Source: Massalongia carnosa (Eukaryota). From it: DNA of 64,000 nt. The position numbers were made by a program, and so were the translations under genes. This document shows, piece after piece, positions 1,920 through 64,000 of the stretch. The number at the start of each line of letters is the position of its first letter. The first letter of the stretch is position 1. The stretch is taken from positions 2,852,001 to 2,916,000 of the forward strand of contig OZ287069.1 of NCBI GenBank assembly GCA_965645245.1, read 5' to 3'. A model generated the notes under the pieces. The model made no database searches. It was not told the DNA's origin and saw nothing but the letters and a program-made list of their open reading frames with translations.

Positions 1920-3160
1920 CCAAAAAAGACCTGCAGTGATTTGGATGAAATGCCTCCTTGTAAGCCAGAGCAAGAGCATTCTCCTCCGTAATTGGGTTCT
2001 AGAGAAGTTTGCCTCGCCAGATTGCAGTCACTGTTTCATTAATTCCAGGAGGGCTTCGAAAGTCTCTTCGAAATCTTCTCCAGAAGGGTAGTCCAGTTTA
2101 AAAAACTTGTCCGCGAGTAATCGTGTCTGAAGATGCCGATTATTTCGATTAGAATGACGGGAATTTTACTAGAAGCTACCCGATGAGCTTGAATCTAGTT
2201 GTAGCTGCTCAAGGCGCTGGAGAGCCCAGGCCCGGTCTCGGAGGAAATCTCGCACTATGTTAACTCTAGCTAAAAAGGCTGCGACGTTAATCTTTTGGTC
2301 CTGAATGGAAGCTTGAACTGGATCATGCTAATGGAGGTAGTATTCTAGGTGGTGAAAAAAAAGAAGTATTCGTGGAAGAATATCAAGGCGGTTCCCATCT
2401 TCGTTTAGGCAATCTTCGTAATCTAAGATCAAGGGGTCAGAATTTAGTAGCAAATGTGGGTGCTGAACGCTGCAGCACTCACGATTCCATTTCGTCTTTC
2501 GTGATACTAAGCGGTCCTTTGAAGTTTTGGTCCACGTGAGGAATAACGTGATGCCATCATGCAAAGCCAAGAGTGTGGAATCTCAGAGAGATCAAGAGAC
2601 TCCGTTACGCGGAAATAGTTTGCCTAACCCCAAACGATCTCAACCCGGGTGCACATCTTCTCTCGAAGAGTTGCTGTCCAATTTTCATATCACTCAGCTG
2701 TTTTTCTGCTGTATTTCTTCGTACCATCCGATTTACTTTCTCTTCTAGAGTAGTGATCGAACCAGAAAGCGTTTTCTTTGCTAATCTTTTGTTTACGACC
2801 AATCGAATACATGGATTTGCGGGAATACTTCGCCATTCAATAGGAATTGGGTGCGAAAATTAGGATGGTTCAAATGAAGGCCAATTTTTGCCTTATGAAT
2901 CTGTCTTGACGGAGATACCGATTCTGATCGTTTTCGTAAAGGCAGCCAGGATTCCGTCACTTCGGTCTTGGATTGCACAAACTCGCGATTCAAGTTCTAC
3001 TCAGAGTCAGACTCATAGGTGAAAGGTTAGCGTTTAGCTCCAGGTCCCTTAAAAATGGCTCGACGCGTCTAAGGGCGGTGGGCTGAAGTTCCGTGAGGTA
3101 GAGTTCGGGTTGCGGCAAATACGTGTTGTCAAAGAAGTGATAATTACTTGCTTGCGCCAT
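1920..3160 (-). pseudogene. Probable decayed gene of unknown function
   Basis: Series of short minus-strand ORFs (2793-2993, 2605-2802, 2328-2570) with protein-like composition, broken by stops and frameshifts; no family recognised. Confidence 0.3.
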
Positions 3161-3245
3161 TGTTTAGTATGTTAGAAGCACTCCCTCTGGGGTTTCGTAG
3201 GGCCTTGACGCCTACCAATACTTACCTCCCCACTCTCCCCTAGGG

Positions 3246-6880: not shown

Positions 6881-7697
6881 CTCGACTATTCAGACAGGTC
6901 TAGATCAAATTAGCATATTGGATTCTCGCCAGGAAATGGGAAGTCATACGCTGACCACTACACCGTAGAACCGAATGATAAGAACTAAGAGTAATAATCA
7001 TCAATATATGTAGTATTGGGTATACTTTTAGCATTGATTACTAATAAATATTCGCGGTATATGATCATTTATGTGCAAGGTCATCCGAAGAGTGGGACAC
7101 ACTGGACAACGAGACTAACTTCATTTCGCTTAACGTTTGAAGCCTAAATTTCACTCGCTTTACATAATAAAAAGAAATAAATAAAAAGAAAAGAAAAGAA
7201 AATTTATAAATTATAAATTTACGTTTTTGTTTTGTCGTAATATCGCGATTCGAAACTCATTTGATATTTGTCGTCCGCCGTACGCTGGAATCAGAATCGG
7301 AATGTTTTCCAACCTCGCGATCCCGTATTTAAGCGCGGTCAAGTCTTTTAATTTTCTTGACTTTTTTTAAAGATGTTATTCTTTTTATTAGTTATTAATT
7401 ATTTAAATTTTATAAGAATAAAATGGTTCTCCAAGTAAGTGTTCATGATGATGATGATGATGATGATGTATTTATACTCCGATATGACACCGGCCGTAGG
7501 CCGGCCCATGCGGGCAAAGCTATCTAAGTTATGTTACATGGAAAACCTTTCACAGGTGTAAAAACCATGTCCCTTGATACCCGTCCGATGTGACTACGGG
7601 TCGACGTCGGGCGGGAGACGCAGTGCAAAAGCCGTGTGGGAACTGTAATGCCTTGTGAAAAGAGAAGAAAGAAAGAAAGGTTCAACTATTGTTGATT

Positions 7698-60463: not shown

Positions 60464-61317
60464 ATTGGGGGAATATAAAAATAAGGAACTACCTATATTT
60501 ACCAAGAGAATACACGCAATTACTTCAGTGTCAATATTGTAAAAGCAGACAGCCTTTAGTGGGAAAAGGTAAGCTTTATAGGTGGGATCCCAAGGGCTCC
60601 TCGTCTCCCAATCGCCAGTGGCAAGGCTGAAACCCTCGGACGTCAACGTCAGACAAGGCTTCAGGTCAACTAAAGTTACACAACTGGCCACCTGGCTTCC
60701 GCTCCCGCGATTTATTTATGGTTAGTAAAGCCTATGTTATTGGTGACTTCACAAGCCAATTGGAATCATGTACGAACATAAGCGAACATTCGCATTTCGA
60801 CATAACGCTATACTTGGAAACTCTGTGCTTGCGTGGCTTTCGACAAAGCGGAGTCTGAATAACGTTGGAAAGGGCCTTTAGAGCGCCAAAACGCTACACC
60901 TAGATCTACAGCGTGCTCTGGATGTAAGTGGTTAGTTAGCTGGAGATTCTATTGATGGTTTGATAGAGGGACGGCTTGGCTTGGACTACTCGTACAGACA
61001 TAAGCCTATCAAATGGCAGGTTTTTACAATCAGTTCAACTAGCTCTACGACGGTTGATACTTTTTAACGTATCACCAAATCATGAAGAAGATTGCCATTC
61101 AGCCACCACTTCTCCAACTCTCTCACGATGAGCTTGTAGTCAGGCGCGTACCTTTTGGCTTGAAAAATGCTCTTCTTTGCCTCGTCAGTCCTCTCAAGGC
61201 CTCGACACGCGATAGCCATTCGAAAATGCACATTGCCTTTTCAGCATTCATGATCAGTGTATCAGCACCTTCAAGAATACTTTAGTGCACGTTCCTATGT
61301 TCAATATCCGATGCCAC

Positions 61318-61390
61318 GGCTGGCAACGAGGACCACCTGTACGCGGTGCCGGCTACGAACCTTCTGCTTGCCAGAAGAGCCAAGTGTCTC
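61318..61390 (+). ncRNA. HDV-like (delta-like) self-cleaving ribozyme, predicted
   Basis: P1 GGCUGGC/GCCGGCU with G1-U wobble; P3 ACC/GGU; L3 UGUACGC; P1.1 GU/AC; P4 CUUCUG/CAGAAG; J4/2 GCCAA (C61380 = C75 equivalent); P2 GAGGACC/GUGUCUC (imperfect). Confidence 0.8.
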
Positions 61391-62600
61391 TCTCCCCTTC
61401 GGTGACGGGTGGGTGTCGGAGGTGAATCGGGGGGTGGGTGAGCACTCCGTGCGGTTTCACCAAAGCACACACATCGCGACGAAAGTTGAGTATCGAAAGA
61501 ACGAACCACAAACGCCATAGTTCTCGAGGTGTTTCCTGAAGGACACAGTCATAGGAGGAGTAGCTCCTAATCTGGGGGTCGAGGAAGAGTCGAACTGCCA
61601 CAAACGCGAAAGGGGTGACGCCCGACAGTCCTCGTACCCGTACGAGGGCCGACACGTTTACGATTCGACTACGAAGCGATTTACCGGGTGGAAAACAGAG
61701 TTTTCGGTCACACCAAAGAGCACGAGAGTATTGCTCCCATCGAAGTAAGAGCTTGGGAAGGCGGACGAGTCGGCACAGCCTCGAGGGGTCCTCGGAGGGA
61801 GCACATGGGAAGGCGGGCGAGTCGGTACAGCCTGAAAAGGAATAATGAGGCATAAGGGACTCCCGTTGGGGCTCGTTTGTGACGGCTATGTCACCGACGA
61901 CCTCACCGCGGCCGGTGTACGTATATGACTTCAGGAATAGTCCTTGCTACTCTACAAGCTTGGTGCCCTAGTTCTTTTCGAAGAACGGTCAAACTACGAC
62001 ACGGTATTGAGGCCTGGTGGAAGGTGCACTTCTCTACCTTATTATTCTCGGAAAGGCCTCTGACCCATGGTTTTCGAGGTGGATGCAACGAGGTCATCTG
62101 ACCCATGACTTATAACGAAGGCGTATGCACATTCGGTCGACTTGAAGGGATAGAGGTGACGACATCGACACGTACGAGCAGCGATAGGCATGTCGAGGGC
62201 GATAGACACACAAAAACAGTCAAAAGTGGGAGCAGGAATACATCTGGATTTGATTTCGATCTACTGGATGACCCGGCTCGGAGGGGATACGGGGGTCTTC
62301 CGCTGAGTCCCCGCTGGATAACGATTCGAGATCAAAACGACCAAGGCTCAAAAAAGTCCCTACCCTGACCATAGTGCGCGATTCATCGTGCCATTTCTTT
62401 TTCTTTCTGGTCATGCAGTCCGCATAGACGTCCGAATCCGTTCCGGCCCCAAGGAGTCGGTGATGGAGTGTTGAAACACAGGGTTTTTGTCACCTCGTAA
62501 GGTTTTTTCACCCCTGTATATAGCCCCATAGATGTGCCCGCATGGGCCGTCCTTCGGACGGTGCCACATCGGAGAATGAATTATCATCATCATCATCATC
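61318..62600 (+). mobile_element. Non-autonomous non-LTR retroelement (SINE/SIDE-like) with 5' HDV-like ribozyme and Tad1-LINE-like 3' tail
   Basis: 14-bp TSD ATATCCGATGCCAC at 61304-61317 and 62601-62614; (CAT)n tail 62583-62600; the 3' ~200 nt resembles the LINE 3' UTR at 7470-7680; no RT or gag coding inside. Confidence 0.88.
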
Positions 62601-64000
62601 ATATCCGATGCCACACGTTCGCCCCAGAAGTGAGCCATCTCCCAATCCTCGAGCTTTATGTACGCCTGGACGATGTTCCAGTTGAGCTGCGAGCCAAGTT
62701 TGTGTCGAAGGAGATCTCCTCGTTGGCCGGCAAGCTTGCCCTCAAGCGGCGTGGTGGCGAAGTAGCCGTCGAGCAGTACTGCGTATGTTCGCCCGTCGAT
62801 AATGGTATGCATAGCTTCATATGCTTCATGGTACTTCTGGATGCTTAGCATAAAGCCTCCAGCCTTGAAGGCAGCGTTGCCTTCTAGCTTCAGTTTTCCG
62901 GCATTCTCAAGAAAATCTGTGGGAGTTGGATTCGGGATTTTCATGGCTTTCTTCAGTTGCTTTTCTGCCGATTTCAGTTTGCAACCTTCGATCGAGACAT
63001 TGCGAATATGCTTCAGTATGGCAAATGGCATCAACAGCGATTCTTGCAATAGTTTAGGGGGAACCGTAGGCTTCGTTGCATACGAGTCCTTGATAATCAA
63101 TTGAAGAAATATGCCCCGAAAAAAGCCGAATTCCTGATAGTCAAAATAATATAATAATTTGCACAGCTGAGGAAGATCGTCTACACATGTGATGTAGGTT
63201 TAAAGTGTTTTTGATTTGACGTCGACTATAAGATCTAGGCGAACGGAGAGGTGGTATTACTTGAAAGATGTTGCTTTTGCGCCCTGGCCTATTATGGGAA
63301 ATTTCCCTGACAAGGGACTTGAAATCTCTCCAAGCCGTGGTAATCTAGATGAACTTGTTCTTGTGAAAAACGCCCTTGGCTTCATCGTGAATCTGCCGAT
63401 TTGTACGGAGGATAGCCACAACGAGATCATAGCAAGAAAAGCCAAACTCAACGTACCGTTTAGTGCGCCTGGTGGAAAGCAAGTTGCTGTAGACTTGCAG
63501 ACGAAGCTCCAATGGTAGACCGAGGAACCTGAACCCATTCAGCAACTGGTGGTGTTCCTTGAAGCTATCAAACTTTGGAGATCCAGGATCTGGCGATATG
63601 ACAGGATTATCAATTACTACAGAAGGGGAGGAGCGGGAGAGAACTTTCTTCCAACGTAAGGTTACGGGATCTAATACATATCTAGGGCATTTTTTCAACC
63701 TCGTGTTGAGTCCAGCAAAAAAAAAAATTGGGAGTTATATCTAAGTTGCCCATGTTCTTATGTATGAGGGTTCACAAAAACATTGATAGCAAGGACGAAT
63801 TAGGCATAGGGGAAGCTTTATTAGCATTTGTACCTCACAAATCTCTTGAAACGTGCCGAGTTTTACCACATCAATCATACTTTATGTTCACTGGGAAAGA
63901 ACCCAATTTGTAAAATACGAGTTGAATTTCATTGCAACGAGCATTAGTTATGAAAGCTATCGCCGAGGTGCTATCGCAAGATGCGTGGTGTGCGCCATGT

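Follow-up and report, generated by a model that had tools for sequence, protein, structure and literature searches.

How can a non-coding sequence in a fungal genome come to end in the same tail as a long interspersed nuclear element (LINE) located some 55 kilobases (kb) away? The question arises in a stretch of 64,000 nucleotides (nt) of Massalongia carnosa (assembly GCA_965645245.1, contig OZ287069.1, positions 2,852,001 to 2,916,000; hereafter, the window), where an element of 1,283 base pairs (bp) occupies positions 61318-62600 of the forward strand and a LINE of approximately 5.18 kb occupies positions 12620-7445 of the reverse strand. The first-pass annotation of the window had described two stem-loops with compensatory changes at both 3' ends, and had proposed that (i) they form the RNA structure recognised by the reverse transcriptase (RT) encoded in the second open reading frame (ORF2) of LINEs; (ii) this structure is conserved as structure rather than as sequence; and (iii) the true partner of the element may be a related Tad1 family rather than this exact LINE. 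The answer reached here is that the element is quite probably a non-coding, non-autonomous retroposon of the kind without long terminal repeats (non-LTR), whose LINE-type tail serves for template recognition by an ORF2 protein. Beyond the first-pass annotation, the full extent of the element, its target-site duplication and a hepatitis delta virus (HDV)-like ribozyme fold at its 5' end were found.

The sharing of tails between LINEs and their parasites is a textbook principle and, in consequence, the finding is an extension rather than a surprise. To our knowledge, the way in which LINE RTs choose their template has been elucidated only in a handful of animal elements. The element is a fungal case of the known sharing of tails between LINEs and short interspersed nuclear elements (SINEs), with two additions that deserve attention, namely a clade-wide 3' RNA motif and a ribozyme-headed class of short parasites.

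Extent and Content of the Element

The element is flanked by an exact 14-bp direct repeat, ATATCCGATGCCAC (repeat family D6), whose left copy lies at 61304-61317 and whose right copy lies at 62601-62614 (forward strand), directly after a microsatellite of six ATC units at 62583-62600. Taken together, these target-site duplication copies and the (ATC)6 tail delimit the element to 61318-62600. Only two (ATC)n tracts of at least four units exist in the window, namely the tail of the element and that of the LINE, which is (ATC)8. Just before the microsatellite, at 62574-62581, there is a conserved box, GAAUGAAU (clade consensus approximately GUAWGAAU), which is found in the same position in LINE 3' ends.

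No long forward open reading frame is present in the element. When it was compared with the three LINE proteins of the window (tblastn), the best match had an expectation value (E) of 3.4, which amounts to no similarity; against 120 ORF2 homologues, the best tblastn match reached an E of 0.023 (1.3-kb database) and tblastx returned none. A classical SINE with a tRNA, 5S or 7SL head was ruled out: ARAGORN predicted 0 tRNA genes in the window, the tRNA, 5S and 7SL families of Rfam did not match the element at E ≤ 10, and at gathering score Rfam gave 0 matches in the whole window.

Homology of the Two Tails

The last part of the element reads TGCCCGCATGGG-CCGTCC-TTC-GGACGG-TGCCACATCGGAG (62535-62574), and that of the LINE, on the reverse strand, reads TGCCCGCATGGG-CCGGCC-TAC-GGCCGG-TGTCATATCGGAG (7516-7477), with a compensatory change from U-A in the element to G-C in the LINE. 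Similarly, the upstream stem is ACAGGG..ACCT-CGTA-AGGT..CCCTGT in the element (62478-62517) and ACATGG..ACCT-GTGAA-AGGT..CCATGT in the LINE (7570-7536), with a change from G-C to U-A. On re-reading, the strings and coordinates of both hairpins, as well as both compensatory pairs, turned out to be exactly as first annotated.

The two stem-loops are referred to here as modules A (upstream) and B (downstream). In the element, module A (62478-62517, forward strand; from folding, covariation and the alignment of model R2, described below) comprises an outer stem ACAGGG/CCCUGU, a U-rich internal loop and an inner hairpin ACCU-CGUA-AGGU, and module B (62538-62572, forward strand; from folding and covariation) comprises an outer stem CCG/CGG around CAU, a hairpin (G)CCGUCC-UUC-GGACGG(U) and a 7-nt 3' strand. 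Their counterparts in the LINE (reverse strand; both from folding and the R2 alignment) are a module A with outer stem ACAUGG/CCAUGU and inner hairpin ACCU-GUGAA-AGGU at 7536-7570, and a module B with outer stem CCG/CGG, CAU and hairpin (G)CCGGCC-UAC-GGCCGG(U) at 7479-7513. Single-sequence folding recovered both hairpins in both tails. A search of Rfam with both tails at E ≤ 10 returned weak spurious matches only (a small nucleolar RNA-like model on the microsatellite, NEAT1_1 and a plant-virus pseudoknot model).

When each tail was compared with the whole window by blastn, the other tail was the sole non-self match (76 bp, 85.5% identity, E approximately 1e-18). Since this match includes the microsatellite, the comparison was redone without it against 1000 shuffles. 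The last 49 nt, corresponding to module B, then gave a local alignment score of 59 (shuffle mean 11.5, maximum 23) and the module A region a score of 27 (shuffle mean 11.7, maximum 23), neither of which was reached by any of the 1000 shuffles. Upstream of module A only a TTTC-rich tract aligns (62393-62412 in the element, read directly; approximately 7680-7655 in the LINE, behind the ORF2 stop codon). This tract does precede both tails, as had been annotated, although the similarity is of low complexity and its score was reached by 49 of the 1000 shuffles. Given that both modules beat the shuffles and that only the TTTC tract aligns further upstream, approximately 105 nt are homologous. By sequence comparison, the tails are homologous well beyond chance.

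A chance likeness between unrelated loci, arising from the shared (ATC)n and from GC-rich palindromes, is an extremely improbable explanation. It could draw on the fact that the microsatellite is part of the blastn match, on the weak z-scores of the hairpins and on the low complexity of the similarity upstream of module A. Nevertheless, modules A and B still outscore every one of 1000 shuffles once the microsatellite is removed and, in 128 kb of searched strand, a model derived from other LINEs matches nothing but these two ends (see below); on these two results, the explanation was rejected.

Covariation between two tails alone is only suggestive, and it is the larger alignments that carry weight. 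Actually, 6 of 47 aligned positions differ between the element and the LINE, and the last module is 87% conserved, so that the likeness of these two tails is plain homology. The proposal that structure rather than sequence is conserved holds for the clade as a whole, as set out in the following section.

The Two-Module Structure Across Fungal LINEs

A metagenome scan for relatives of the ORF2 of the window LINE gave at least 80 loci, all of them, among the matches listed, 33-47% identical to it. A protein search returned ORF2 homologues of up to 70% identity, plus a partial copy of 98% identity (P0002); the relatives of 65-70% identity (P0001, P0003 and P0004) had no DNA counterpart among the metagenome matches listed. 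In 20 of the 28 loci that contain the end of ORF2, a microsatellite or poly(A) is found 160-320 nt behind it, the repeat units being (AATC), (AAT), (ATA), (ATCA), (AATT), (TCA), (AT) or A.

Both modules are visible by eye in the 100 nt before these metagenomic LINE tails. In the clade, module A consists of a 5-6-bp helix ending in GG, followed by UUUUU, an inner hairpin, UUU(U)CC and the return strand. Module B has a 3-4-bp outer stem (CCG/CGG, CGG/CCG, CUG/CAG, CUA/UAG, CCU/AGG and others) which encloses CAU, a hairpin beginning RG...CY and a small number of unpaired bases. It is followed by one base, the GUAWGAAU box and the tail. In every family printed, the structure directly abuts the family-specific tail repeat.

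Two covariance models were used: (i) R1, which represents module B and was built from the two window tails only; and (ii) R2, which was built from five metagenomic LINE 3' ends and contains no window sequence. Searched against both strands of the window (128 kb of searched strand) at E ≤ 10, R2 found exactly two full-length sites, one at the end of the LINE (7468-7573; 34.8 bits, E 7e-5) and the other at the end of the element (62475-62583; 25.5 bits, E 0.006). That a model ignorant of the window picks exactly these two ends supports the claim of the first-pass annotation that the stem-loops are a conserved RNA structure. Over 438,486 bases, R2 gave 16 matches at E ≤ 1, namely 13 LINE 3' ends, the element and two other sites (in loci L002 and L053, the latter at a contig edge), while R1 gave 18 matches at E ≤ 10, namely two self-matches, 13 LINE 3' ends and three elsewhere. 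Matches were assigned to LINE 3' ends by comparing their coordinates with the ends of the ORF2 matches.

In the R2 alignment, which was fitted to the structure of the model and comprises 15 pairs in 15 distinct rows, pairing is found in 95.6% of 204 cells, compared with 77.0 ± 1.8% in shuffles and 19-54% with slid partners. Both sides change in 10 of the 15 pairs, with 41 compensatory cells versus 12.0 in shuffles, and none of 500 shuffles reached any of five measures. The outer stem of module A, with its stems taken per family, covaries across families. In the R1 alignment, false matches included, 97.8% of 91 cells pair (shuffles, 77.7%; slid partners, 19-49%) and both partners vary in 6 of 10 pairs. 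The check proposed by the first-pass annotation, namely covariation in a larger alignment, therefore found it strong rather than lacking. A regular-expression descriptor for module B was not discriminating, with 80 matches versus 59-94 in 20 shuffles; as it accepted perfect stems only, both tails of the window escaped it.

Judging by covariation, the two stem-loops form a genuine RNA structure that has been conserved among LINE families with ORF2 proteins 33-47% identical to that of the window LINE (among the loci listed). No description of a bipartite 3' structure of this kind was found in the literature searched (largely without subscription papers), and it matched no Rfam family in the scans.

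What, then, is the structure for? Passages of published work indicate that the ORF2 proteins of stringent LINEs bind a cognate 3' stem-loop (PMC4176376). By analogy with them, the two-module tail would most likely be the template-recognition signal of stringent-type LINEs. It might instead have a different role in the LINE RNA, for example in 3'-end formation, stability, nuclear export, translation or re-initiation at ORF2, in which case the element would be an internal deletion of a LINE. Covariation shows that a fold is selected, not what binds it, and module A, at approximately 60-100 nt from the 3' end, need not join the priming complex; both points are compatible with such another function. 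However, all that the non-coding parasite has retained of the LINE is the two modules, the GAAUGAAU box and the same microsatellite. Besides, in the stringent LINEs studied, the terminal stem-loop is the binding site of ORF2 (PMC4176376; PMC1636434, in the passages on this subject), and the structure stands directly against the tail repeat in the families mentioned above. A different function is, in consequence, considered unlikely.

One of the two other R2 matches deserves a separate description. At 6860-6952 of L002 the match scores 32 bits and lies approximately 2 kb behind ORF2, with repeated GGTTACGAG-like motifs between them; either the 3' untranslated region (UTR) is very long or a second, nested element is present.

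A Predicted HDV-Like Ribozyme at the 5' End

The first bases of the element (61318-61394, forward strand) are predicted to adopt the fold of an HDV-like self-cleaving ribozyme, with cleavage predicted 5' of G61318 and a candidate catalytic C at 61380. The best sub-threshold Rfam match within the element is HDV_ribozyme (RF00094), full-length, with 20.2 bits and an E of 3.7, which is not significant alone. In the corresponding alignment, the cleavage site falls exactly on the boundary between the duplication and the element, and the first base of helix P1 is also that of the element.

When the element was compared with the metagenomic loci by blastn, its first 45 nt or so matched approximately 1.3 kb upstream of ORF2 in four of them (L019, L021, L023 and L040), and a second site was matched in L021 and L023. 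The head of the element was aligned with three related heads (four sequences of three types) by plain MAFFT, without fitting to a structure. In helices P1, P1.1, P2, P3 and P4, 95 of 96 cells pair (slid controls, 38-59%) and 11 of 24 pairs vary at both positions; four of five measures were reached by 0 of 500 shuffles and the fifth by 1 of 500. Among the heads, P3 occurs as ACC/GGU or AGG/CCU and P1.1 as GU/AC or UC/GG. All four sequences share (i) an invariant C at alignment column 75 (61380 in the window), within an invariant AGAGC after P4; (ii) an invariant C between P2 and P3 (alignment column 17); and (iii) a G-U pair at the cleavage site. From its position in the strand joining P4 and P2, C61380 is the candidate catalytic C.

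A model of the head (R3) matched the LINE heads of L019, L021, L023 and L040, the second site in L021 and L023, the element itself and a head in L014 (30.4 bits, E 1.7e-6). The second head of L023 scored 33.5 bits with drz-agam-1 (RF01787; gathering score 37, E 0.0017) and 34 bits with HDV_ribozyme (gathering score 50), and the curated Rfam threshold was reached neither by this head nor by that of the element. The flanks differ exactly upstream of G1 in the L023 and L040 heads, and the first head of L023 is the 5' end of a LINE with an ORF2 of 1,291 amino acids (aa). According to this modelling, the 5' end of the element is likely set by an HDV-like ribozyme, which would cleave at that point. 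In the literature searched (again largely without subscription papers), no HDV-type ribozyme linked to Tad1 or to fungal LINEs was found.

Several features of the loci with related heads can be described. The second head of L023 and L021 begins a short element of approximately 820 bp (8377 to approximately 7554, reverse strand), with a well-preserved HDV-like head and a 13-bp duplication, AAGCTGCCTTATA; it adjoins the full LINE headed by the sister ribozyme. In L014 (827-1, reverse strand), there is an AT-rich element of approximately 820 bp with a decayed head of this type at its start and (AATC)n at its end; in the stems, several G's have become A's, which looks like repeat-induced point mutation. 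Between head and ORF2 of the L023 LINE (1166-2488), no ATG-started open reading frame of at least 120 codons exists and only frames of 70-115 codons were seen; ORF1 is therefore broken or unusual in this LINE family.

Other Copies of the Element

Contigs from four sequencing runs of three studies, one of them labelled lichen metagenome, were placed on positions 61100-62800 of the window, with 62573-62609 excluded. The insertion is present in 4/4 runs; contigs bridge its 5' junction in all four and its 3' junction in run X5. Directly before 61318, loose contig ends with differing flanks were observed in 4/4 runs, which means that this is also the first base of other copies. The stretch 61334-61383 recurs, in differing surroundings, in other ribozyme cores, and a variant of the body diverges by approximately 8% over at least 423 nt.

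Summed contig depth, which is not copy number, was approximately 434 (run X1), 27 (X2) and 872 (X4) in the flanks; approximately 1,230-2,150, at least 84, and 2,460-3,170 or more, respectively, in the body of the element; and 44,740, 5,754 and 28,916, respectively, in the bin 62525-62581. The body is thus approximately three times as deep as the flanks, and the last 57 nt or so approximately 33-216 times as deep. In the reads, sequences that share these last nucleotides far outnumber those that share the body, and loose ends before 62517, 62526 and 62536 reveal several LINE-type contexts of module A joined to a common last module. The evidence for independent insertions consists of the loose ends and the threefold depth of the body; full copies with duplications of their own were not among the contigs.

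These data bear on whether the element is a one-off chimeric retrocopy, that is, the product of a LINE RT that started on the 3' end of a LINE RNA and switched to an unrelated ribozyme-headed RNA. The tail would then be a LINE fragment, and no self-propagating family would exist. Chimeras that arose by template switching and carry LINE 3' parts and duplications have been described in a fungus (the WEIRD-MGL 'MINE' of Magnaporthe, described in passages of PMC2104539). The homology between element and LINE is limited to the 3' 105 nt or so and, since the head resembles the head of a different LINE family than the tail does, the element looks mosaic. But other copies share the 5' end at 61318 with different flanks, and the depth of the body and its diverged variant likewise point to amplification of the element as a unit after its formation. 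Furthermore, ribozyme-headed short elements built in the same way are found in unrelated contigs, namely those of L014 (approximately 820 bp) and L023 (with the 13-bp duplication). A one-off chimera is, therefore, very unlikely, and a retroposon with a LINE-type tail is the preferred reading.

The LINE of the Window and the Possible Partner of the Element

The window LINE (12620-7445, reverse strand) was delimited by its open reading frames, Pfam domains, flanking duplication and tail. ORF1 (12535-11048) is a single frame of 495 codons with one in-frame stop at 11950-11948. ORF2 (11051-7698) is intact, encodes 1,117 aa and overlaps the ORF1 stop by 4 nt (11051-11048). The 3' UTR (7697-7469) and the (ATC)8 tail (7468-7445) follow, and the duplication GAACACTTAC lies at 12630-12621 and 7444-7435.

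According to Pfam, ORF1 carries zf-CCHC, and ORF2 carries Exo_endo_phos/Exo_endo_phos_2 and RVT_1. The Tad1-clade features of an apurinic-type endonuclease and RT in ORF2, and a zinc knuckle in ORF1, are thus present, and Tad1 is a candidate label for this LINE, the nearest named ORF2 relatives being 'hypothetical protein' entries of Dothideomycetes. Pfam gave no match to an RNase H domain in the 1,117 aa of ORF2. That domain (PF00075) is carried by ORF2 homologues of 1,270-1,360 aa with 36-43% identity to the window LINE, and an RNase H after the RT is stated for the Tad-clade element I-1_AF in a passage of PMC5063351.

This copy of the LINE is probably not fully autonomous unless the ORF1 stop is read through. 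No ribozyme was found at or near its 5' end, either with R3 or with Rfam (0 matches). An internally deleted derivative of this LINE copy, of the SIDE/NARTc type, was a rejected candidate for the element: the copy shares its 3' end with the element but has no 5' ribozyme. A partner of that type, sharing both ends, may exist elsewhere in the genome. A second LINE family, P0016, has 68% protein identity to the window LINE, which hints at a related LINE family in the same assembly as the P0002 copy. The suggestion that the partner belongs to a related family rather than being the window copy has accordingly gained plausibility from the homology confined to approximately 105 nt, the ORF1 stop, the missing head and the several LINE-type contexts in the reads.

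The target sites of the element and of the LINE both start with AT right after (ATC)n (61304-61308; 12632-12621 / 7446-7435), so that the junction between tail and target is ambiguous by 2 nt. The AT at both sites is in keeping with a priming step in which a few bases of the RNA tail pair with the nicked target.

Proposed Mechanism and Its Weak Points

The element most probably spreads by borrowing the copying enzyme of a LINE. In such a process, (i) the ribozyme would cut the RNA of the element out of a longer transcript exactly at its first base; (ii) a LINE ORF2 protein that uses the same signal would bind the 3' modules, by analogy with stringent-type LINEs; (iii) target-primed reverse transcription would start at the (AUC)n tail; and (iv) insertion of the element by the borrowed enzyme would create the 14-bp duplication. 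The mobilisation of the element by the LINE ORF2 protein would, in the light of the same analogy, take place in trans.

A number of results weigh against this proposal. As regards the head, the ribozyme of the element scores 20.2 bits against an Rfam gathering score of 50. Moreover, R3 run without filters on the other LINE loci yielded 25 weak matches (best, 14 bits) and no credible head in 17 of 17; the head is not, therefore, a clade-wide feature. As regards the tail, the single-sequence folds have z-scores of -1.1 to -1.8, which are not significant alone, and RNAalifold predicted 0 pairs on a plain MAFFT alignment of 12 tails, because the stems are misregistered by MAFFT. The high pairing figures were obtained with alignments fitted to the structure of the model and are biased towards it, and the metagenomic LINE families are related by descent, for which reason the shuffle controls overstate significance. 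With respect to activity, every one of the four runs carries the insertion and none showed an empty-site joint, so there is no sign of recent activity; in addition, no RNA run is among the sequencing runs listed as containing the element. Finally, the 6 differences in 47 tail positions, the ORF1 stop and the lack of a ribozyme head make it improbable that the LINE copy of the window drives the element.

A wider proposal can be put forward tentatively, as a possibility that may well prove wrong: the bipartite 3' signal, comprising the two modules, the GUAWGAAU box and a family-specific microsatellite, would be a clade-wide template-recognition code of many fungal endonuclease-RT LINEs, exploited by promoter-less, ribozyme-cut parasitic RNAs of 0.8-1.3 kb.

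Relation to Known Systems

In vertebrates, the sharing of tails between LINEs and their parasites is established (passages of PMC4176376 and PMC1636434). As in eel UnaL2/UnaSINE1 and zebrafish ZfL2, a LINE and a non-autonomous element share here a 3' stem-loop conserved in structure, and short tail repeats (PMC4176376; PMC1636434). The vertebrate systems, as described in those passages, belong to the L2 clade and have one hairpin and tRNA-derived heads for RNA polymerase III. In contrast, the present system, as characterised by sequence analysis, involves a fungal endonuclease-RT LINE, a two-part signal and a ribozyme head.

In fungi, passages of two papers report that Mg-SINE mimics the 3' end of MGL in Magnaporthe (PMC2104539) and that the 3' end of AfuSINE2-1a resembles the 3' UTR of the Tad-clade LINE I-1_AF in Aspergillus fumigatus (PMC5063351). 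In both of these pairs, as in the window, the 3' end of a fungal retroposon resembles that of a resident LINE and duplications measure 12-14 bp. However, Mg-SINE and AfuSINE2-1a are tRNA-related SINEs of 0.14-0.5 kb, whereas the element has 1.28 kb and neither a tRNA nor a 5S head. The passages on Mg-SINE (PMC2104539) and AfuSINE2-1a (PMC5063351) contain no covarying bipartite structure.

HDV-like ribozymes are described, in the relevant passages, at the head of R2 and L1Tc (PMC6765202), of both L1Tc and the non-autonomous NARTc (PMC3383444) and of the R2 SIDEs of Drosophila, which are ribozyme-headed non-autonomous derivatives (PMC3414825). As in L1Tc/NARTc of Trypanosoma cruzi and in the R2 SIDEs, an HDV-like ribozyme forming the first 77-180 nt or so would set the 5' end of the element, and the 3' end would be used by the RT of a partner. 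But NARTc and the R2 SIDEs, according to the same passages, arose from their partner by internal deletion and have both ends in common with it, whereas the window LINE has no ribozyme head, the body of the element has no trace of LINE coding sequence and the lineage is fungal.

Among the closest ribozymes described are the fungal variant HDV ribozymes, which self-cleave in vitro and typically have an extra C between P2 and P3 (Li and Breaker, 2017; PMC5640933, in the passages on these variants). As in these ascomycete ribozymes, a nested double pseudoknot is predicted and the extra C between P2 and P3 is present in 4/4 heads. The consensus in PMC5640933, compared here by description only, has the usual C-G at the cleavage site and an E-loop in P4, whereas the heads analysed here have G-U. 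The same paper places the variants beside 'widely variable' genes, and the words 'retrotransposon' and 'transposable' have 0 occurrences in its main text.

Significance

Should the wider proposal be true, many of the variant HDV ribozymes reported in fungi next to 'widely variable' genes would represent the 5' termini of LINEs of this kind and of their parasites, and the 3' motif would provide a new RNA family, amenable to assays, for the study of template choice by RTs. The 5' ribozyme would link to retroposons a class of fungal HDV-type ribozymes whose genomic role is left open in the passages of PMC5640933. It would also explain the precise 5' end of an element that has no promoter.

As for the tail, the signal is a fungal RNA of approximately 105 nt which covaries across families whose proteins are 33-47% identical to that of the window LINE (among the loci listed). 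A parasite that keeps only this tail signal is a natural minimal substrate for binding and mobilisation assays. In practical terms, the two covariance models, for head and tail, mark LINE 3' ends and ribozyme-headed elements that are overlooked by protein-based repeat finders.

Further Observations Around the Insertion

The element lies antisense inside an open frame of the reverse strand (62615-63199), which seems to resume at 61064-61240 after a possible short intron; Pfam gave no family for the two pieces flanking the insertion. Approximately 450 bp upstream of the element, at 60825-60865 (forward strand), there is a weak R1 match (13.8 bits, E 1.7) which resembles module B and has no microsatellite; it could be due to chance or be an old decayed tail. 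Within the body of the element, a 42-nt direct repeat is found at 61740-61833, its two copies being 81% identical and 52 nt apart.

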